A DNA stretch of 64,000 bases from an uncultured virus (IMG/VR IMGVR_UViG_3300042257_000362) (lineage: Duplodnaviria > Heunggongvirae > Uroviricota > Caudoviricetes): the IMG/VR virus record IMGVR_UViG_3300042257_000362, positions 1 to 64,000 of that record; one strand, given 5' to 3'. Position numbers and translations under genes: made by a program. Positions 1,155 to 61,380 of the stretch are shown here, in pieces (the stretch's first letter is position 1; every line of letters begins with the position of its first letter). Under the pieces are notes generated by a model that had not been told where the DNA came from, did no database searches, and worked only from the letters and a program-made list of their open reading frames with translations.

Positions 1155-2957
1155 TTAGTTTTTTCTAATACCATTAAGTAGACCGTATCTGCCTCTGTCT
1201 TCATCTTGAGTAAATTCAATCACCTTGACTTTCGAATATGATTCAATATCAGCAGGTAAATCTTTAGGGTTTACATTCTCGATAACTATCATTTGATCAT
1301 TTTCTATACTTTCAATTATATATTTGAAAAATCCTTGTCTTACATCATCTGTTGACTCGATTCCATCTGGCATAGTTAATCCATGTAACGGAGAATCAAT
1401 TAAATAAAAATGCGGGTTGTTAATTGAAAACTCATTAATATACTTTCTCATAGATAGAATTAAAATAGTATTTAATAGAGCTCTATAGCCTTTACCGTGT
1501 GTTTTCTTTGCGTCCCCATTAACTATCACATCAAAATCATTCATATCGAAGACAACTGATTCTAGAGGTGTGAAATTGATTTTTCTTAATATGTCATAAT
1601 AATAATCTGCAATAGAAGAAGCAAAGTCATCAGGAAATAAGTCTTTCGGTTTATACTCGATATGTTTGTCAATAGTGGAATCTAAATTTGATAAGTCACT
1701 TTCAAAACCTGATAGCATTAGATTAGTTGATTCTAGTTCGTGAATAGCTTTTATGTATTCATTGTACTTGCTAATTTTTTCAGCTATAGATTGCCTATGT
1801 GGTTTGAGTTGATTATTCATATCATGATCAATATCTGACTTTTGTCTTTTTAGACCTTCCAACGTTTGCAGAAGAGCATCTTTTTCATTTGAAATATCAT
1901 CAATTGTGGTCGATAGGGCAATACTGCTAGCCAATATTTTTCTTGCTTCAGCTCTTGAAGCTTCTAGATAGGAGGATTCTTGATTTTTTTCAAGACTACC
2001 ATTACAAAACGGGCAGTTAATTGGCGATTTATGATTATGAATAACATCTTCACCTTGTATAATGAATCCAAGCCTATTTATATCTGACACATATTGTGAT
2101 TCTAATATCTTGTATCTGTCTAATTGCATATTAACTCGTCTGATCGAGTTTTCAGTTTCTATAATTTGCCTTCCAATAGTTTTTATATTTGTAATCGATT
2201 CGTCAATGATCTTGTTAGTCTCATCTAGTTCACTCTGCAAATTACTAATCATTTTCTCTAGTGATTCGCTATCTTTTTCAATTCCATTAATATATTTGCT
2301 TAAGGTCTCTCTTCGTCCAATGAGCTTTTCCTTGTTACTTATAATATATTTTTGAACAGCTGCTTTTTTAGCAGCTTTTGTTTTTTTATTTTCATCTGCA
2401 TCAAATTCAGAAAAATCTTGATCGTATAAGATGTAAAGTAAACCTGATAAGAAAGCTGTTCTAGCAGTATAGTTATCAGGTAGTAATATTGATTTTTCTA
2501 ACTCAGTGTCATTTTCATTTACGGTTAGTAATGATTTCAGTGTTCTCAATGAAAATCTTTGAGTTTGGCCATCAGTATTCTTAGGAACTTTTAATCCTAT
2601 TTTAATATCAAGCAACTTTGAAAAGAAATCTCTAATATTATCTTTTTCACCTGAGATTTTGTAGTCAGTTGTTTTATTACCTTCAAGGACGCTGATGGTA
2701 TTTGAACCAATCACTCTAGTTAGGGTTATTGATGATAAATTTTTAATTAACTCCATTCTAATCGTATCGTAGCCTATAGATTTATCAAAAGGTGCACTAT
2801 CATTACTTGCACCTAACATGTAGTAAATTGATTTATAAATATATGATTTACCAGTGTCTGAGGGACCGATGATAATTGTTAGATTCTCTCCGAAATTAAT
2901 CTCTGATACACCTTTTTCACCAGTGTACATAAGTTTGCTAATATATAATCTTCCCAT
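1155..2957 (-). CDS. SMC/Rad50-like ABC ATPase of ABC-three-component (Lamassu LmuB-like) system
   Basis: Walker A GPSDTGKS, long coiled coil with CPFC zinc hook, C-terminal GKGYRALLN and YLIDSP motifs. Confidence 0.85.
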   Translation of the reverse strand: MGRLYISKLMYTGEKGVSEINFGENLTIIIGPSDTGKSYIYKSIYYMLGASNDSAPFDKSIGYDTIRMELIKNLSSITLTRVIGSNTISVLEGNKTTDYKISGEKDNIRDFFSKLLDIKIGLKVPKNTDGQTQRFSLRTLKSLLTVNENDTELEKSILLPDNYTARTAFLSGLLYILYDQDFSEFDADENKKTKAAKKAAVQKYIISNKEKLIGRRETLSKYINGIEKDSESLEKMISNLQSELDETNKIIDESITNIKTIGRQIIETENSIRRVNMQLDRYKILESQYVSDINRLGFIIQGEDVIHNHKSPINCPFCNGSLEKNQESSYLEASRAEARKILASSIALSTTIDDISNEKDALLQTLEGLKRQKSDIDHDMNNQLKPHRQSIAEKISKYNEYIKAIHELESTNLMLSGFESDLSNLDSTIDKHIEYKPKDLFPDDFASSIADYYYDILRKINFTPLESVVFDMNDFDVIVNGDAKKTHGKGYRALLNTILILSMRKYINEFSINNPHFYLIDSPLHGLTMPDGIESTDDVRQGFFKYIIESIENDQMIVIENVNPKDLPADIESYSKVKVIEFTQDEDRGRYGLLNGIRKN

Positions 2958-2963
2958 GTCATT

Positions 2964-3401
2964 TTACCCCTTTCTTACAGCTTTTTTAGTAGCAAGCGTA
3001 ACAATTTGTTTTTCATTCATATTTGAAGTGATATCATTAACTATTTTCACACATTGACTATATTGGTTAAAGTAATCGGTATCCATTTTAGAGCAAATGA
3101 TTCTACCTTCTTCACTAATCTTGTATGTGAATCCATAAGCATTTTGAATAGGGATCACCAAACCTTCAAGAACTAGTGATTTTAATGCATCATTGATTAA
3201 TTTTCTTCTTGAAGTTATTTCACTAAAAGTATAGGTATTATCTCCATGCAAATTGAAATCAATCATATCATACGCTTTTCCATATGTTGCAAATAAATCA
3301 ATAGATGTTACTTCATCTAAAGAGCAGTTTTTATTAATGACATTCAATAAAACAAGAACTCGAAACGAAATCTCATGCTTTGAATTAAATATTTTTATCA
3401 T
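2964..3401 (-). CDS. ABC-3C middle component (LmuC-like)
   Basis: IFNS..EISFR and LHGDN..FSEITSRR motifs; lies between effector and ATPase; start re-assigned to 3401. Confidence 0.8.
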   Translation of the reverse strand: MIKIFNSKHEISFRVLVLLNVINKNCSLDEVTSIDLFATYGKAYDMIDFNLHGDNTYTFSEITSRRKLINDALKSLVLEGLVIPIQNAYGFTYKISEEGRIICSKMDTDYFNQYSQCVKIVNDITSNMNEKQIVTLATKKAVRKG

Positions 3402-4341
3402 AATCAACCACCCATTCAATTCGTCCATCATTGACTAACATGTGAATTATACCTTGTTTTTCTGAATTGCCGATTAAACCGACGTTTTGTCTAGCTAAAT
3501 ACGACCGACCATATGTAATCGTCACTGCATGATTCATTGTCCTATTAACTCTCTCGAAAGCATTATTATATGCTGCAATCATCACAGAGAATATGCCATC
3601 AAAAGTTTCATCTTTCATAATATTGAACTCTTCTTCACCATCTTCATATATGTCTCTTATTTGGTGTAACACACTATCGGCACTAAAGTATGTCTTTCTT
3701 TGAAACTTAAAATGCTCTTCATATTGAGGTTCCAAAGATTTTAAGTCGTCAACGGTCAATGGGCCTAAGCCTGCAGCTTGTGAGTACACTCTCATTAATG
3801 CATCAACATACGGCATTTCTTTTTCTAAGATATTTTCTGTAGGTACGAGTTTTGGATATAGCTTTATCGTTTTCCCACCAATCCTAACTTTGTTATCGCT
3901 AATGAATTCAGAATCTCTAATGCTAGTAGAAGGACTGACATTAACAATGTAATACATAATATCATCCAACGTATCAGTAAGTCCTTGTTCAAAGTCAGTG
4001 GGATTAATTTTGATATTAAAAATCTCGAACTCAGAAATAATATGGTCTATTGCTTCTACTGAAAGATTACTAGAAAAACTTTCAAAGGTTGATGAGTCCA
4101 AATTGCCACGTATAAAAGAAGCGCAATTCTGAGGAAGTGCTTCCGTTCCATTAAAAACTTTTCTTGAAAAATCTGAAGAAAGGTCATCTATAGGGTTTTT
4201 ATCATCATCATTTATTGAAATGAATGCATTAAGATATGTCTTAAGTTTATCTTCTTTTGTTACCCTGCTAGAAGCGGATGAACACATTACTTCATTCCAA
4301 AGATACTGATCAATGATTGAGAGAAATTGATTTAGTTTCAT
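3385..4341 (-). CDS. ABC-3C first component (LmuA-like; conserved C-terminal domain, unknown N-terminus)
   Basis: C-terminal KQGIIHMLVNDGRIEWV motif; first gene of a three-gene overlapping operon. Confidence 0.75.
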   Translation of the reverse strand: MKLNQFLSIIDQYLWNEVMCSSASSRVTKEDKLKTYLNAFISINDDDKNPIDDLSSDFSRKVFNGTEALPQNCASFIRGNLDSSTFESFSSNLSVEAIDHIISEFEIFNIKINPTDFEQGLTDTLDDIMYYIVNVSPSTSIRDSEFISDNKVRIGGKTIKLYPKLVPTENILEKEMPYVDALMRVYSQAAGLGPLTVDDLKSLEPQYEEHFKFQRKTYFSADSVLHQIRDIYEDGEEEFNIMKDETFDGIFSVMIAAYNNAFERVNRTMNHAVTITYGRSYLARQNVGLIGNSEKQGIIHMLVNDGRIEWVVDYDKNI

Positions 4342-4600
4342 TAACTAACACCTCCTGGAAAACGGAGTTAAAAGCTACCTCCGTTCGACTCTCATTTGAG
4401 ATATAAAAAAAATATATAATCATGTTGTCAGAAAGTTAATCGATTTTGCCGACTTAATTATATCAAATTAATCATACATATACAATTGAACGCAAATGAA
4501 AAATTTGAAAAGTCGAACTTTTATTCTGATAACAGGCTTTATATTTCGTTAGTGTCATGAACTAACTCCCAGAAATATAAAGCTTAAAACTTAATATAAT

Positions 4601-4745
4601 GCAGTATGCGTTGGGACGTTGTCTGCAAATTGAAATGGAGTTATTCAGTTAACCCTTCTTTTTGCGACCCCTTTGAACTGCCTACATGACTGAGAAAGAA
4701 TATCTCCATTTTTAGAAAACAAATCTAAACTGGAGGTATTTTTTT
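4601..4745 (+). ncRNA. Putative structured cis-regulatory leader RNA (copy 1)
   Basis: Conserved with 60610-60747, including a compensatory pair; ends in RBS-sequestering hairpin plus T-run. Confidence 0.65.
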
Positions 4746-5330
4746 ATGAGATTGTCTAAAGCAGAAAAGAATCAAAATCCTAAATTATATGGATATGGAA
4801 CCCTCGAACAGCTTCAAAGCGATCCAGAAAACACGCAAACACACTGGATTCTTTATAAGGATGCGGATGGGGATTACAGGTTCATTCCTTGTGACGAGGC
4901 TTATTATCATGCGTATAGAAATGAAGAACGTAATGAAAGACGTTTGCGTGACTTGGAATCAAGGTGTTTAATTCCATCTGAAAAATACGGGTTAGTGAAA
5001 TGTCGAGCTGATTGTAGTCTGTGTCCAAAAGTTAGAGACGGACTTCCTATCTCTATTGATTACATGCGCGAGCATTATGGTTTTGATTTCAAAGATAAGT
5101 CTTATGAAGTAAAGGAAGAAGAATTATATGAACAAGAACAAAAGGATTTTATTTGGAATGTTGTGAGTGAACTTGATCCTGTAGATCAAAAGATACTCAA
5201 ACTCTTTAATGCGGGTAAAAAGGATGCTGAAATCGCTGAAGTATTAAGTAAATCACGAAGCAGAATTCAGGAACGCAGAGTTCAACTGATTGAACTTTTA
5301 AAAGAAAAATTAAAAAAGTTTAACGAATAA
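4746..5330 (+). CDS. Sigma-70 region-4-type (sigma-like) transcription factor
   Basis: C-terminal LDPVDQKILKL...DAEIAEVLSKSRSRIQERR HTH; Cys cluster CRADCSLC. Confidence 0.75.
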   Translation: MRLSKAEKNQNPKLYGYGTLEQLQSDPENTQTHWILYKDADGDYRFIPCDEAYYHAYRNEERNERRLRDLESRCLIPSEKYGLVKCRADCSLCPKVRDGLPISIDYMREHYGFDFKDKSYEVKEEELYEQEQKDFIWNVVSELDPVDQKILKLFNAGKKDAEIAEVLSKSRSRIQERRVQLIELLKEKLKKFNE

Positions 5331-57174: not shown

Positions 57175-58977
57175 CTAATTTTTTCTAATGCCTTTTAGTA
57201 ATCCATATCGGCCTTTGTTCTCACTTTTTGTAAATTCTATAATACTAATATTTGGATCGGTGTTAATATCTTTTGAAAGATCACCAGGAACAATGTTTTC
57301 CATAATAATAATTTGATCATCTCCATAATTATTAATAACGTAGTTAAAAAACCCTTTTCTAACGTTTTCATCTTGTTGAACTCCTTCTGGCATCTGTATA
57401 CCATGCAAAGGAGAATCTAATAAATAGAAGTGAGGGTTCTTGATAGCAACTTCATTGATGTATTCACGCATAGAGAGAATCATTATTGAATTGAGTAATG
57501 CTCTTACACCTTTTCCATGTGTCTTTTTTTCATCTCCATTAACAATTATATCGAGTTTAGATAAATCAAATTCCGCTGAATTTGCTGGAGTATATTTACA
57601 TCTCTTTAGTATTGATAGGTATGTCTTATTTATAGTAGAGATAAAATCATCTGCAAATAACTCTTTTGGTTTATATGCACGTTTTTCACTTACCGTAGAG
57701 TCAAGATGGGATAAATCATTCTCAAAGTTATCAAGCAAAGAATTGATTAATTCTAAATCATTCGATGCTTTTACATAGGCTGAGTATTGACTAATTTTTT
57801 GAGTAATAGATACTTTTTGCGGTTTTAATTCGGTGCTTAGCAGATTGTCGATAGATTTCTTTTTCTTTTTCAAATCTTTAAGCTCATCTAAATAACTAGA
57901 AACTTCAAAATCTATATCTATTAGTGTTTGAGATAAAGACATACTGTTATTTAGTATTTTAACAACTTCAGCTCTCGAAGATTCCAAATAAGAAGCTTCT
58001 TGTTCCTTTTCTAATTCCCCATTGCAGAACGGGCAGTTATGTGGTGATTCATGCTTGTGGATTATATCCTCACCTTGAATGATGAAACCTAACCTCTCAA
58101 TGTCAGCAATATATTGAGATTCGAGTGCTTTGTATCTGTTTTGAGTTATCTTTCTTGTTCTAATTAATTCTTCTTTCTTGGTTATCTCGGAGCTTACATT
58201 TCTCATATCATTTATTGTTGATGAAATGAGTGAATTTGTCTTGTCAAGCTCGGTTTGGAGATCTTCAATTAAATTCTCAAGATATGTATTATCTCCATTT
58301 TTCTCAGACAAGAATTTTTCAAGTGAGTCTTTTTGCTGCAAAAACTTTTCTTTATTACTAATGATATACTTTTGAACAGCAGCTCTTTTAGCAGCTTTGG
58401 TTTTTTTATTTTCTTCTGCATCAAACTCTGAATAATCTTGTTCATATAAAATATACAATAAGCATGATAAGAATGAAGTTGTGTTTTGAACAATGTCAGG
58501 AGTCAATATAGGTTTTTCTAACTCAGTATTATCCTCATGTACAAATAGTAGTGGTTTTAGACTTCGAAATGAAAAAGCCTCAGTTTGACCATCTTCATTT
58601 TTAGGTACTTGTAGCGATACAGGTATATCTAATATCTCAGAAAAGACTTCTCTAATGTTATCTTTTTTTCCACTAACTTTATAAATCTTATTCTTTATAC
58701 CATCATTAACGAGAATTTTATTTTCACCGATTTTTCTAGTTAATGTAATATGCGAATTGTCCTTCCTTACTTCCATAGAAATAGTATCATATCCAATTGA
58801 AGTATCAAAAGGTGCGTTCTTATTGCTAGAGCCTAAAAGATAATAAATTGACTTAAACACATATGTTTTACCGGTATCAGAAGGGCCAAAAATCAACGTT
58901 AGGTTTTCACCAAATGTGATTTCTGAGATTCCTTTAGTTCCAGTAAAAGTTAGTTTATTTATGTGAAATTTTCCCAT
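57175..58977 (-). CDS. SMC/Rad50-like ABC ATPase of ABC-3C system, copy 2
   Basis: GPSDTGKT, CPFC hook, YLLDSP. Confidence 0.85.
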   Translation of the reverse strand: MGKFHINKLTFTGTKGISEITFGENLTLIFGPSDTGKTYVFKSIYYLLGSSNKNAPFDTSIGYDTISMEVRKDNSHITLTRKIGENKILVNDGIKNKIYKVSGKKDNIREVFSEILDIPVSLQVPKNEDGQTEAFSFRSLKPLLFVHEDNTELEKPILTPDIVQNTTSFLSCLLYILYEQDYSEFDAEENKKTKAAKRAAVQKYIISNKEKFLQQKDSLEKFLSEKNGDNTYLENLIEDLQTELDKTNSLISSTINDMRNVSSEITKKEELIRTRKITQNRYKALESQYIADIERLGFIIQGEDIIHKHESPHNCPFCNGELEKEQEASYLESSRAEVVKILNNSMSLSQTLIDIDFEVSSYLDELKDLKKKKKSIDNLLSTELKPQKVSITQKISQYSAYVKASNDLELINSLLDNFENDLSHLDSTVSEKRAYKPKELFADDFISTINKTYLSILKRCKYTPANSAEFDLSKLDIIVNGDEKKTHGKGVRALLNSIMILSMREYINEVAIKNPHFYLLDSPLHGIQMPEGVQQDENVRKGFFNYVINNYGDDQIIIMENIVPGDLSKDINTDPNISIIEFTKSENKGRYGLLKGIRKN

Positions 58978-58982
58978 ATAAG

Positions 58983-59420
58983 TTATTCCCTCCTAACAGA
59001 TTCTTTTGTAGCATAATTGATTAATTTTTCATCGGTCCAATTTTGCGTTTTTTGAATAATCAATCTGACACTATCAATATACTTTTTAAAATAATCAGTT
59101 TCCATTTTTTCACAAACCTTACGACCATCCTCACTGATAATATATGTAAATCCATAAGCGTTTTGAAGTGGCATTAGTAATCCGGATAAAACGAGAGTGT
59201 TTATTGATTGGGAAACCTGATATCTTCGTGATGCAATTTCGCTAAAGCTATATGAACTGTCTCCGTGAAGATTAAATTCCAAAAAACCATAGTTTTTTCC
59301 ATAACTTGAAAACAAATCAATAGTTGTAATATGATCAACTGATATTGGAGCTCTCATCACATTTGTTATAACGAGAACTCTTAATGATATTTCAAGTTCA
59401 GAATTAAATATCTGTGTCAT
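58983..59420 (-). CDS. ABC-3C middle component, copy 2
   Basis: IFNSELEISLR; LHGD..SFSEIASRR. Confidence 0.8.
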   Translation of the reverse strand: MTQIFNSELEISLRVLVITNVMRAPISVDHITTIDLFSSYGKNYGFLEFNLHGDSSYSFSEIASRRYQVSQSINTLVLSGLLMPLQNAYGFTYIISEDGRKVCEKMETDYFKKYIDSVRLIIQKTQNWTDEKLINYATKESVRRE

Positions 59421-60357
59421 AATCAACCACCCACTCAATCTTCCCTTCATTAACTAGCATATGAACCATTCCTTGTTTTTCAGGGTTTCCAATAATGCCA
59501 TTATTGTCTCTAGTTAAAATGTTTTTGCTAAAGGTAATATCAACAACTTTTTGCATTGTACTATCAACTCTTTCGAGAGCATTCTTATACTCTTTCATGA
59601 TAGTAATTTCAATACCAGAAAGTAAATCTGCTTTCGCTTCGTTAAACTCGTATTCTCCATCTGGAAATACATCTCTAATTTGATGAAGAACACTCTCGGC
59701 GTTAAAATAATTTTCTCTTTGTAATTTAAAATGTTTTTCATATCTTGGATGCATTGATTTTAGATCAGTTAATGATATTGATCCGAATTTTTCTGATTGT
59801 GCATAGACACGTAGTAAGGCATCAACATACCGTATTTCATTTTTTATTATAGCTTCTGTAGGGACAAGCTTATCTAATAAATTTACTGTCTTACCTCCGA
59901 TTTTAACTTGGTTGTGACCGATAAAAACTGCATCACGTATTGAAGCTGAAGGCTTCACGTTTATAACGTAATAGAGTATGGTATCTAAGACCTTAGTAAT
60001 ATCTTTTTCAAAATTATCAAAAGTTATGGTGAAATTATAAGTCGCAAACTGTGAAATCATTCCATTTCTAGCATCCTCAGAGAGATCTTCTGAAAATATT
60101 TCAAATGTATAATAATCCAAATTTTCTTTTATATAAGAGGCGCAATCTACAGGTAAAGATTCTACTCCATTGAAAACCTTAAGTAAAAACCCATCTTTTC
60201 TCTTCTCGATTGGATTAGCTGAATCCACTGCGGATACAAATGCATTCAAATAAGTCTTTAATTTGTCTGCTTTTGTAACCCTACCAGATTTAGAACCGCT
60301 TAAGACTTTATGACTAAAATATTGTTCCATTATTGATAAAAAATCATTTAGTTTCAT
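59404..60357 (-). CDS. ABC-3C first component, copy 2
   Basis: Homologous to 3385..4341; KQGMVHMLVNEGKIEWV. Confidence 0.75.
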   Translation of the reverse strand: MKLNDFLSIMEQYFSHKVLSGSKSGRVTKADKLKTYLNAFVSAVDSANPIEKRKDGFLLKVFNGVESLPVDCASYIKENLDYYTFEIFSEDLSEDARNGMISQFATYNFTITFDNFEKDITKVLDTILYYVINVKPSASIRDAVFIGHNQVKIGGKTVNLLDKLVPTEAIIKNEIRYVDALLRVYAQSEKFGSISLTDLKSMHPRYEKHFKLQRENYFNAESVLHQIRDVFPDGEYEFNEAKADLLSGIEITIMKEYKNALERVDSTMQKVVDITFSKNILTRDNNGIIGNPEKQGMVHMLVNEGKIEWVVDYDTDI

Positions 60358-60609
60358 AGAATTTATCCTCCCTAATGAAATCGGAGCCAGAAATACACTC
60401 CACCTAGCTCTTAAGTCAAAATTCTAGTTGGTGTAATATAATGTCGTAATGAAAATTGACTGATAGTAATTTTCTTTATTATATCAAAAAACGGATGCAT
60501 CTACAATCTTATTACAAATTATTGCTTTGCAATAGTGATATTAAAGTTTGATAACGCATGCTTATCCATTACTAGTGTGGATTTCGCAAAAGCATGTAGA
60601 AATAATTAA

Positions 60610-60747
60610 GCAGAACTAACCATTGCGAGGAAAGTCTGCAAAATAAATGGATATACTCATATACCATTCTTTTTGCTGACGCCTATAAACTGCCTACATA
60701 CTACGAAAAGAGTATCTCCATTAATTCAAAAATGGAGGTATTTTTTT
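60610..60747 (+). ncRNA. Putative structured cis-regulatory leader RNA (copy 2)
   Basis: Conserved blocks and pairings with 4601-4745. Confidence 0.65.
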
Positions 60748-61380
60748 ATGAAATTACGTAAAACACCAATCTCGAAAAGAATGACATACACCTATTTTTT
60801 TGCTAACGGAGATAAGGTCATCCTGGAACCAGGAAGATCAACAACGATTTATGCATCCGGTGGTAGAACCATACAAGTTGATGAATCTATCACTGAAATC
60901 ACAATTACCGAACTTCACAGACAAGATGATGCTGAAGTAAGAGCAAACCTTAAATATATCAACTGTGAAAGCAACATAGAGCGACAAGCACGCATAGCTA
61001 ATAAAAAGAAGTGGGCTATGGAACATCCTGAAGAAGTTAATCCATATGACAAACCACCAAGAATCATGAATCTCGATGCATTTAATGATGATGAAAACTC
61101 ACAAGACGATAAAAGCAGTCTGTTATATAAAGCATCTATTTACTCAGAGCAAATCAACTCTGATGATAATTATGAAAAGCTCGAGCTCATCAAAGAGTTT
61201 GTTGCTACATTACCAACTACCATGCAAGAGATGTTTGACCTTATCTATATTCAAGAACTAAAACAATCAGATGTTTGCTCGATTTTAGGTATATCAAAAA
61301 GCACGGTATCAGAACGTGTAAAAACACTTAACAAAAAAATAATTGAACATTTTTCAAACCAACCCGAACTTTTGAGATAA
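60748..61380 (+). CDS. Sigma-70 region-4-type factor (different allele from element I)
   Basis: LPTTMQEMFDLIY..ELKQSDVCSILGISKSTVSERV HTH; start re-assigned to 60748. Confidence 0.75.
   Translation: MKLRKTPISKRMTYTYFFANGDKVILEPGRSTTIYASGGRTIQVDESITEITITELHRQDDAEVRANLKYINCESNIERQARIANKKKWAMEHPEEVNPYDKPPRIMNLDAFNDDENSQDDKSSLLYKASIYSEQINSDDNYEKLELIKEFVATLPTTMQEMFDLIYIQELKQSDVCSILGISKSTVSERVKTLNKKIIEHFSNQPELLR

Follow-up and report, generated by a model that had tools for sequence, protein, structure and literature searches.

Among the transcriptional/translational riboswitches and attenuators of Firmicutes are those with a mutually exclusive terminator and antiterminator and with the Shine-Dalgarno (SD) sequence within the terminator. 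The RNA described here, a leader of about 215 nucleotides (nt), occurs twice in a window of 64,000 nt (the whole stretch of DNA analysed, positions 1-64,000 of the 99.7-kb IMG/VR virus record IMGVR_UViG_3300042257_000362), each time ahead of the first early gene of a prophage-like region. Its closest described relative is the DUF2800 RNA, Rfam RF02960, a candidate cis-regulatory motif of Firmicutes phages that is listed under type Cis-reg with no known partner; the hosts of the relatives of the window leader are Acholeplasmatales. A preprint citing the motif attributes it, in the passage concerned, to Weinberg et al. 2017 (NAR 45:10811, PMC5737381) and describes it as a phage cis-regulatory element or small RNA. 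The DUF2800 motif is not mentioned in the available main text of Weinberg et al. (PMC5737381), and the full-text literature listed under "DUF2800" includes, as judged by that listing, no paper on the mechanism of the RNA. Here we show by comparison of sequences that two predicted, mutually exclusive and covarying folds of this leader are conserved throughout the family. It is probable that the leader is a pseudoknotted prophage switch, a variant of RF02960, that hides or exposes the ribosome-binding site (RBS) of the first early gene.

The DUF2800 RNA is one of many orphan phage RNAs catalogued as "cis-regulatory" without a mechanism. To this entry the present analysis adds a family-wide expression platform (an RBS/terminator hairpin opposed to an antiterminator), a long-range pseudoknot with unusually clear covariation, and a sub-family below the Rfam threshold in prophages of the wall-less Acholeplasmatales.

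Like the Firmicutes riboswitches, the leader has a structured 5' domain followed by an SD-bearing hairpin and a U-run, an upstream strand that can pair with the 5' arm of that hairpin, and a decision that would be kinetic. In contrast to them, it has no known partner, be it a ligand, a tRNA, a leader peptide or a protein, and its antiterminator strand is the 5' strand of a hairpin (P3) and not a strand shared by an aptamer closing stem and the terminator. There is no conserved leader open reading frame (ORF). Leader-peptide attenuation was considered and rejected: the start of hairpin H reads ATGCAG, but many relatives have ACAG, AAGCAG or TCGCAG there and so lack the ATG, which moreover is not preceded by an SD sequence.

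Two further groups of phage RNAs invite comparison. The immunity CI RNA of phage P4 with its seqA and seqC sites is presented in PMC4825925, citing Sabbattini 1995 and Briani 2000. As far as that account of P4 goes, both systems are leaders of a phage replication or early operon with internally complementary sequences, and P4 offers a further likeness in that premature termination silences the lytic genes and an untranslated leader RNA is the regulator. The P4 RNA is processed and acts in trans, whereas the complementary strands of the window leader form a pseudoknot in cis; the likeness is one of layout, and no sequence relationship is claimed. ROOL, GOLLD and OLE (bioRxiv 10.1101/2024.12.08.627333) are homo-oligomeric phage-associated ornate RNAs. 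The leader is likened to these, and to kissing-loop dimerisation signals, by the self-complementary sequence of 6-8 nt in a predicted hairpin loop of a phage-borne structured RNA; it is small (about 215 nt) and tied to the RBS of one gene, and about one third of its members have no such palindrome.

The leader copies and their relation to RF02960

A sequence-only reading of the window had placed a switch-like element at 4601-4745 and 60610-60747. The shared motifs on which it was based are present there: GCAG/CTGC, AAATGGA and TTCTTTTTGC, together with AACTGCCTACAT, which is identical in both copies. The element itself starts further 5'. Each of these stretches appears to be the 3' two-thirds of a cis-acting leader RNA of about 215 nt that begins about 67 nt upstream of them, at 4534 in copy 1 and at 60556 in copy 2, with a long hairpin, P1. 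The folding z-scores are -6.94 for copy 1 and -5.48 for copy 2 (0 of 200 shuffles fold as well), and the two leaders share 77% mean column identity over 217 columns. The predicted parts are listed below.

4534..4585, plus strand: copy 1, hairpin P1: two stems (outer and inner), an apical loop of 7 nt and, on the 3' side, an internal loop of 5 nt (minimum free energy (MFE) fold, RF02960 alignment)
4555..4560, plus strand: copy 1, self-complementary hexamer UCAUGA in the apical loop of P1 (read from the sequence)
4567..4572, plus strand: copy 1, pseudoknot 5' strand UCCCAG in the 3' internal loop of P1; partner UUGGGA at 4611-4616
4601..4626, plus strand: copy 1, hairpin H, part of fold B; GCAG 4601-4604 with CUGC 4623-4626, the loop holding UUGGGA
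4601..4681, plus strand: copy 1, fold-A domain; P2 4601-4605/4677-4681, P2a GCAAA 4625-4629 with UUUGC 4661-4665, hairpin P3 4632-4658 (MFE fold, RF02960 alignment, pair counts)
4633..4646, plus strand: copy 1, putative antiterminator or anti-sequestor 5' strand AAAUGGAGUUAUUC, also the 5' strand of P3; 13 of 14 positions complementary to 4698-4711
4693..4745, plus strand: copy 1, hairpin T and U-run; antiterminator 3' strand 4698-4711 within its 5' arm, SD sequence GGAGG 4732-4736 within its 3' arm; U-run 4739-4745
60556..60597, plus strand: copy 2, hairpin P1; apical palindrome ACUAGU 60571-60576, pseudoknot 5' strand UCGCAA 60584-60589
60610..60639, plus strand: copy 2, hairpin H; GCAG 60610-60613 with CUGC 60636-60639, the loop holding the pseudoknot 3' strand UUGCGA 60623-60628
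60610..60693, plus strand: copy 2, fold-A domain; P2 60610-60613/60690-60693, P2a 60638-60643/60671-60676, P3 60646-60668
60646..60658, plus strand: copy 2, putative antiterminator 5' strand AAUGGAUAUACUC; 12 of 13 positions complementary to 60710-60722
60706..60747, plus strand: copy 2, hairpin T and U-run; SD sequence GGAGG 60734-60738, U-run 60741-60747

By alignment the leader is a low-GC variant of RF02960 from Acholeplasmatales phages, plus an expression platform outside the Rfam model. At gathering thresholds Rfam finds two tRNAs only in the whole window. At a permissive threshold, model positions 1-158 of RF02960 align with 4534-4685 of copy 1 (37.4 bits, E 3.5e-5 on 401 nt), copy 2 is matched weakly (13.7 bits), and leaders from Acholeplasmatales genomes reach 18.4-30.5 bits in four of five genomes. 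The sequence-only reading had implied that the element was new and had held that a match to a described Rfam family would remove its novelty; the implied novelty is not supported: the element is a sub-threshold relative of RF02960, which bears that clause out in part. A bona fide set of RF02960 leaders was obtained by fetching 25 viral loci with a consensus pattern; 18 of the 20 that were scanned are members, at 116.8-160.7 bits, which serves as a positive control, and 15 of them are distinct. Among 149 scored genomes sampled from the phylum of a host genome RF02960 gave no match, and the controls were equally silent there, so this result is uninformative on absence.

The alignment with copy 1 is in register through P1, an A-rich linker, P2, CUAUUG.GAG..GG, CUGCAA and the GAAA(U/C)GGAG hairpin, and the window clade and RF02960 agree in this order of parts, from P1 with its 3' internal loop and the ACAA..AAUA linker onwards. 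Copy 1 matches the 5' hairpin of the model (1-51), which has an inner and an outer stem and is unpaired over a stretch of its 3' side, and this shape is predicted in both copies. The closing stem (67-73/149-155) around an inner stem and the AcGGAGaAuUCCgU hairpin has its counterpart in P2/P2a/P3. The inner stem of the model (89-93/124-128) is not formed in copy 1, where five of five pairs are non-standard; it is replaced by the shifted P2a, GCAAA/UUUGC in the window clade as against gcugC/Gcggu in RF02960. Of the single-stranded motifs, judged by eye on the cmscan and MAFFT alignments, the linker ACAA..AAUA, CUAUUG.GAG..GG and CUGCAA are recognisable, while CAAUCCG has become CAAAUUG.

Both clades further share the complementarity between the P1 loop and loop 2 (GCUCAA/UUGAGC in the Rfam consensus), the downstream RBS hairpin with its antiterminator, and a position ahead of a Cys-rich helix-turn-helix (HTH) regulator of the phrog_13787 type followed by DUF2800 and replication genes. 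First genes of both clades match phrog_13787; the DUF2800 gene lies one gene downstream in both window copies, and in the relatives it starts 170-257 nt after the first ORF. The clades differ in GC content (about 0.35 in the window clade, 0.55 in the best-scoring RF02960 match) and in length, the window clade being shorter on the 3' side of the domain, where the consensus segment GGACUGcgguuugu is without counterpart. Unlike RF02960, the window clade has P1 and the pseudoknot in many sequence types. The Rfam model ends before hairpin T, and the expression platform is outside the catalogued family.

The sequence-only reading had also singled out a 12-mer as invariant and had proposed it as a site for a ligand, a protein or an antisense RNA. 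The 12-mer is identical in the two copies yet is found in just 8 of 40 distinct relatives, and as a binding site it was rejected. Its AACUGC is the 3' strand of P2 and the remainder is variable spacer; the RF02960 alignment likewise places it on the P2 3' strand and the start of the spacer.

Relatives were gathered via the DUF2800 protein (56 viral and 14 genome loci, 70 in total), and the named genomes among them are mostly metagenome-assembled genomes of Acholeplasmatales/Tenericutes. A covariance model built on 38 distinct leaders, R1, finds the leader in 53 of the 70 loci: 51 matches are full-length on the plus strand (E <= 2e-11, including the two of the window) and two are cut by a contig end. 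All minus-strand matches over the 70 loci have E >= 0.12. Fourteen loci could not be judged, with at most 805 nt upstream of the DUF2800 gene, and three had room yet gave no match, namely L054 and L066, which have a different leader, and L074, a partial DUF2800 match. In the 99.7-kb record R1 has exactly two matches (E 2e-20 and 9.8e-20), the one at copy 2 spanning 60609-60752 with 112.5 bits. Every leader ends at the ATG of an ORF of 130-215 amino acids (aa), and the U-run and ATG motif TTTTTTATG is present in 36 of 40 relatives. The median identity among the 40 distinct leaders is 62%, and at 90% identity they fall into 27 clusters. Among 50,697 phage records blastn gave no match to the leader of copy 1, and for copy 2 two 30-nt Listeria-phage matches of no consequence.

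At L054:130-380 and L066:1900-2100, in loci that have the same DUF2800 operon, a hairpin with a palindromic loop of the UGAUCA type and a GC-rich hairpin followed by a U-run are seen by eye. This leader may be a third variant or a replacement.

Two alternative folds and a long-range pseudoknot

RNAalifold recovered from a plain MAFFT alignment just T and six further pairs, the sub-types being out of register there at P2 and P3; the structures were therefore written by hand, and a covariance-model alignment was used in addition. Pairs were counted on 38-40 distinct sequences.

Fold A consists of P2 (GCAGUUC/GAACUGC or variants), P2b, P2a (GCAAA/UUUGC) and P3. It is followed by hairpin T, which pairs ..AUAUCUCCA with UGGAGGUAU.., and then by the U-run and AUG. 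On the covariance-model alignment 85.0% of the fold-A cells are paired, compared with 36-51% when the partners are slid, and double changes occur in 79 cells (30.7 in shuffles) and 18 pairs (12.1 in shuffles), values that 0 of 500 shuffles reach in either case. On the plain MAFFT alignment 83.9% of the cells are paired and 59 show double changes, against 25.1. The proportion of paired cells is 78.6% in P2 (double changes in five of seven pairs), 99.0% in P2a, 79.9% in P3 and 92.5% in the lower helix of T. G-U pairs are frequent in T (e.g., GU:26, GU:21) and therefore argue for a plus-strand RNA.

Fold B combines hairpin H with a pairing of the P3 5' strand (U)UGAAAUGGAG.. to ..CUCCAUUUCA(G), the 5' arm of T. 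Counted on a MAFFT alignment that was not fitted to it, 83.5% of its cells are paired (32-50% with slid partners) and 44 cells have changed on both sides, where shuffles give 11.5 (0 of 500 reach the count). Compensatory changes are found in 9 of the 16 pairs of the antiterminator helix, for example at columns 56/118 (UA:11, CG:10, UG:10). Helix H is paired in 81.2% of cells and has double changes in 4 of 11 pairs.

The pairings which the sequence-only reading had drawn in the window are borne out. A hairpin TATCTCCA/TGGAGGTA buries the RBS over GGAGG (4732-4736 and 60734-60738) and is followed by T7 and the ATG (4746 and 60748). The alternative pairing joins AAATGGAGTTATTC (4633-4646) to GAATATCTCCATTT (4698-4711) in copy 1 and AATGGATATACTC (60646-60658) to GAGTATCTCCATT (60710-60722) in copy 2, with one mismatch each and a compensatory difference between the copies, UUC/GAA being replaced by CUC/GAG. 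The RBS-hiding hairpin and the upstream antiterminator pairing exclude each other, as had been claimed: the antiterminator has the double changes just given and recurs in 15 of 15 distinct RF02960 members.

Each of these 15 members has the pseudoknot (at least 5 Watson-Crick bp), hairpin H, an antiterminator of 9-10 bp and a hairpin T over CGGAGG. Their antiterminator is written in different letters, GAAACGGAG/CUCCGUUUC (CGAAACGGAG/CUCCGUUUCG), and locus L089 has an additional compensatory pair in it (GGAACGGAG/CUCCGUUCC). Three mutually pairing positions switch jointly between the clades, from U-A-U in the window clade to C-G-C in RF02960. Since the bona fide members share both the RBS hairpin and the antiterminator, the predicted switch is family-wide.

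The pseudoknot was absent from the sequence-only reading. The unpaired stretch on the 3' side of P1, its internal loop, is always present and complementary to the loop of H (GCAG..CUGC). Most frequent is UCACAA(U)/(A)UUGUGA, and the window has UCCCAG/UUGGGA in copy 1 and UCGCAA/UUGCGA in copy 2. Further variants are UCGUAAU/AUUACGA, CUACAAU/AUUGUAG, UCACAUU/AAUGUGA, ACGUGA/UCACGU and UCGCUA/UAGCGG, and the RF02960 members add AUCCAGU/ACUGGAU and GUUCAGU/ACUGAAC. On an alignment anchored on both strands, seven of seven pairs show compensatory changes, and the first six have no unpaired cell in 37 distinct rows, compared with 24-42% paired for slid partners. Among eight pseudoknot types the cognate duplexes have 5-7 Watson-Crick bp, whereas non-cognate combinations have a mean of 3.05 bp and reach at least 5 bp in 3 of 56. 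Diversifying selection on the pseudoknot was considered and is not supported, its column entropy being about that of unconstrained spacer columns.

The shape of P1 recurs in the predictions for all relatives that have sufficient DNA upstream (37 of 37), across several unrelated sequences. A short palindrome lies 10-20 nt 5' of P1 in the window copies (AAAAGU-CGA-ACUUUU at 4510-4527, UAUUGC-UUU-GCAAUA at 60520-60535), and both have the heptamer TGATAAC just 5' of P1. Directly 5' of P1 many relatives carry an inverted repeat, P0 (e.g., L008:1951-1976, L070, L071, L044 and L048), which is also present in bona fide RF02960 loci such as L084:1380-1408. The arms of P0 covary: GAAUUAAG/CUUAAUUC, CUAGG/CCUAG, UUAGGA/UCCUAA and UGAGCA/UGCUCA versus UCGGUA/UGCCGA. 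P0 is either an extra RNA hairpin that the Rfam model leaves out or an operator that overlaps the promoter.

It is very improbable that the whole conserved region is a feature of the DNA, i.e., a set of promoter or operator inverted repeats, and not of an RNA. Such a view would suit its place between divergent or tandem regulatory modules, the palindromic nature of P1 and P0, the overlap of P0 with hexamers resembling -35 and -10 elements in some relatives, and the folding energy of P1, which is not strand-specific. The long-range covariation of pseudoknot and antiterminator, the constant 3'-side position of the P1 internal loop and the G-U pairs in T would, however, be senseless in a duplex; moreover, the covariance-model matches are strand-specific, and the leader adjoins an SD sequence and a start codon in every locus.

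Energetics, the proposed switch and its trigger

Before the 3' arm of T is included, fold A has a mean energy of -26.2 and fold B of -26.1 kcal/mol (constrained folding, 36 sequences); B is better in 17 and A in 18 sequences, and the difference is at most 2 kcal/mol in 15. In the full-length leader fold A with T is better in 36 of 36, by a mean of 16 kcal/mol. As the finished RNA strongly prefers A with T, and the energies of A and B match only as long as T lacks its 3' arm, the choice would be made during transcription. When the growing chain of either window copy is folded by MFE, P1 forms first and then H, which persists while P3 forms and does not give way to P2a/P2 until their 3' strands have emerged. 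Such behaviour is the mark of a kinetic decision, placed by the folding model at the step where P2/P2a must displace H.

We infer the following operation. The sensor-like 5' part would be P1, whose 3' internal loop forms a pseudoknot of 6-7 bp with a loop about 45 nt downstream. In fold A (OFF), P2, P2a and P3 form, leaving the strand CUCCAUUU free to pair with the SD sequence UGGAGG in T; with T followed by the U-run and AUG, the ribosome site would be buried and transcription probably stopped as well. In fold B (ON), H persists and P3 opens, so that its SD-like 5' strand (U)GAAAUGGAG.. would pair with ..CUCCAUUUC(A) and free the real SD sequence. If H is displaced in time, P3 would be locked in a long stack and T would form (OFF); if H persists, P3 stands isolated and the 5' arm of T would be able to invade it (ON). 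Because the pseudoknot ties P1 to the loop enclosed by H, it is the obvious candidate for the input site, through which the 5' part may set the outcome; a metabolite, a protein or a further leader RNA molecule would be conceivable as the trigger.

Several observations weigh against a switch of this kind. The start of the RNA, its termini at the U-run and the occurrence of both states in vivo are predicted from sequence only. The counted sequences are related, so that the shuffle controls overstate significance, and the covariance-model alignment used for the fold-A counts had been fitted to fold A. Within the clade there is hardly any variation in AUGGAG/CUCCAU/UGGAGG, the core of the strands of antiterminator, T and P3, and the support for the antiterminator comes in good part from its flanks and from the difference between clades. 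The pseudoknot partner was taken as the best complement within a window of 40-50 nt, a choice favouring pairing, although the chosen partner always lies at the same structural place. Both copies score under the curated gathering threshold of RF02960 (60.2 bits). Folding shows a terminator-like hairpin followed by U7 in both copies; a consensus scanner, however, called no plus-strand terminator-like site at either copy (its one call, on the minus strand, lies across hairpin T of copy 2), and promoter-like sites at both copies are not in excess of the shuffled expectation. The energy of P1 folded alone favours the plus strand in 20 and the minus strand in 17 of 37 sequences and does not tell the strands apart. 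Finally, 12 of the 15 RF02960 members have a clean U-run behind T, whereas L097 has none and L094 and L087 have an interrupted one. Because some members are without a clean U-run, RBS masking is the constant predicted feature, and termination is likely but not universal.

In L097 hairpin T is followed by UAAAAAACAUG, an A-run in place of the U-run, and only translational masking would be possible.

It might be argued that there is no switch, and that a single structure, fold A with T, constitutively damps or insulates the early operon and stabilises its 5' end, the alternative pairing being a by-product of the SD-like sequence of P3. The preference of the full-length RNA for A with T, the Rfam consensus, which shows fold A only, and the near-invariant antiterminator core would all agree with this. 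Yet the antiterminator covaries beyond the core constrained by the SD sequence (columns 56/118, and 42/132 with UA:11, UG:11, CG:5), a U-A swap occurs at columns 46/128, an internal-loop position in T, and the bona fide RF02960 members keep their 9-10 bp antiterminator with different letters. In hairpin H, column 2 changes from G to A together with column 38 from C to U in five sequences (AU:5), while the fold-A partner is AU in one. With this evidence we regard the constitutive structure as improbable and prefer the two-fold switch.

If the two-fold switch responds to a metabolite or ion, the pseudoknotted P1/P2/P3 domain would be an aptamer whose ligand locks fold A (OFF), and a host metabolite would gate lytic entry. 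We consider this unlikely. The layout of aptamer plus expression platform with a pseudoknot fits, as do the near-isoenergetic folds just before the decision point, the unpaired nucleotides conserved in both clades around the pseudoknot (CU..UUG.GAG..GG, the ACAA..AAUA linker, CUGCAA) and the Rfam listing as a cis-regulatory RNA with no known partner. On the other hand, the gene context suggests no ligand, the regulated gene being a transcription regulator and not an enzyme or transporter; the domain is in essence one long irregular hairpin with a pseudoknot, without a multi-helix junction; and Rfam scans of the window and the leaders matched no known riboswitch family. The most conserved nucleotides, moreover, sit in strands whose conservation is explained by their having two alternative partners each.

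A bolder explanation, though not the best one, is recognition of the RNA by itself through the apical palindrome of P1 and perhaps through the pseudoknot strands in trans. The outcome would then track leader concentration; in a variant, the terminated leader would act on nascent leaders, giving a form of immunity or feedback built on RNA, comparable to that of the P4 CI RNA or to antisense attenuation in plasmids. The HIV-1 DIS is the comparison case for such kissing-loop dimerisation signals. Palindromes of at least 6 nt are found at the P1 apex in 22 of 52 distinct RNAs by an automatic loop call, compared with 5.6% of shuffled loops; 12 more were read by eye where the fold had paired part of the palindrome, and at least eight different palindromes occur. 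The co-resident copies differ in both codes (UCAUGA versus ACUAGU, UCCCAG/UUGGGA versus UCGCAA/UUGCGA), and cross-pairing between them amounts to just 3-4 bp. A precedent is P4, where, in the account given by PMC4825925, the processed leader RNA pairs with two sites of the same leader and causes premature termination.

Nevertheless, 18 of the 52 apices have no palindrome of at least 6 nt, the GC-rich clade has mostly one palindrome (UGAUCA in 11) instead of a diversified code, and a palindrome at the apex can also be an inverted repeat at the DNA level. With about 45 nt between them in cis, the pseudoknot strands would pair intramolecularly first; their columns vary about as much as spacer, with no sign of diversifying selection; and with so many types two random family members usually differ anyway. 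We therefore think self-recognition rather unlikely. The more specific idea of a private two-part code (a P1 kissing loop plus the pseudoknot pair of 6-7 nt), by which the leaders of one phage interact with each other and not with those of a co-resident relative, is quite doubtful. Were such a code real, the RBS/terminator switch would become a concentration-dependent or immunity-like lytic gate without protein or metabolite, and the two tandem prophages of the window would be an orthogonal pair.

The two-fold switch can be tested by mutation. According to it, a widespread group of temperate phages adds an RNA checkpoint ahead of the first early regulator. Should the trigger turn out to be a host metabolite, or the RNA itself, the lysis-lysogeny decision would gain a new input; with no trigger the element would be a structured insulator.

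Gene setting and the upstream module

The window contains two related prophage-like early regions. In each, a three-gene ABC-3C system on the minus strand (CTD6 protein, MC2 protein and ABC ATPase; 1155-4341 and 57175-60357) faces a plus-strand early operon, and the leader occupies the gap of about 400 nt ahead of the first gene of the operon, a small regulator. This is followed in both regions by a DUF2800/PD-(D/E)XK gene and an AAA_24 gene; the DUF2800 proteins of the two regions are 67% identical. The first region continues in the window with a helicase and a PriCT/AAA_25 primase further along the operon. The regulated genes are as follows.

4746..5330, plus strand: first early gene of copy 1, 194 aa, Cys-rich, with C-terminal HTH
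60748..61380, plus strand: first early gene of copy 2, 210 aa, with sigma-70 region-4 HTH

The gene of copy 1 matches phrog_13787 (8.1e-11) and a sigma-factor PHROG (2.9e-4), and Pfam Sigma70_r4_2 only at E 0.092; that of copy 2 matches Sigma70_r4_2 with 27.9 bits (cut-off 25.7) and sigma-factor PHROGs at about 1e-9. The two regulators are not alignable by BLASTP (E = 1.8); the sequence-only reading had noted that the N-termini downstream of the leaders are not conserved. The first genes of the Acholeplasmatales loci form two families (39 and 13 loci) and a singleton. Because the families are linked just by a weak C-terminal match, the name "sigma-like" given to both genes is fair solely in the sense of a region-4-type HTH, which is present.

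For copy 2 the ORF lister extended the ORF to a TTG at 60673, inside the leader (60673-60747). The ATG at 60748 is argued to be the true start, because the arrangement of SD sequence, U-run and ATG recurs family-wide.

The slot directly upstream of the leader appears as a swap site for immunity and defence modules. Both window copies have the ABC-3C system with CTD6, MC2 and ABC ATPase there. Relatives (among L006, L007, L008, L011, L012, L028, L029, L038 and L043) carry a CTD11-type ABC-3C or a Cro/CI-type HTH_26 protein with HamA, and others have large M78 (ImmA/IrrE-like) proteins encoded on the leader's strand. Of the 70 related loci, tblastn with the CTD6 and MC2 proteins of the window matches just nine, and these include the two loci of the window itself. 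The ABC-3C system as a requirement for the leader was rejected, since other loci carry CTD11-type ABC-3C, HTH_26/HamA or M78-type modules.

This setting bears on the remaining candidate for the trigger of the two-fold switch, a phage or host RNA-binding protein that sets the fold by binding to P1 and the pseudoknot or to the GGA strands. Such a protein-controlled attenuator would fit a structure that is conserved while the sequence of P1 and the pseudoknot is variable and the flanking single-stranded motifs are conserved, and it would fit a leader at the boundary of lysogeny and lysis, where phage regulators act. The thermodynamic default is OFF and therefore calls for an active antiterminating factor. 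However, the immunity module next to the leader differs between loci (ABC-3C with CTD6 or CTD11, HTH_26/HamA, M78/ImmA-like), and because of this no single neighbouring repressor accompanies the leader RNA. The first gene belongs to two families and a singleton, only the downstream replication genes co-occur with the leader, and no RNA-binding domain was seen among the scanned proteins. We hold a protein trigger to be unlikely.

Two tRNA genes at 379-450 and 469-556 (Rfam tRNA, 55.9 and 49.7 bits) lie at the left edge of the first element and may mark an integration site.

The family phrog_13787, of unknown function, is common to the first gene of copy 1 and to GC-rich RF02960 loci (e.g., L084:1610-2122). 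The proteins of copy 1 and L084 both have a Cys-rich stretch (CxxxxxxxxxxC..CxxC-like) and a C-terminal HTH, which suggests a zinc-ribbon regulator travelling with the leader RNA.

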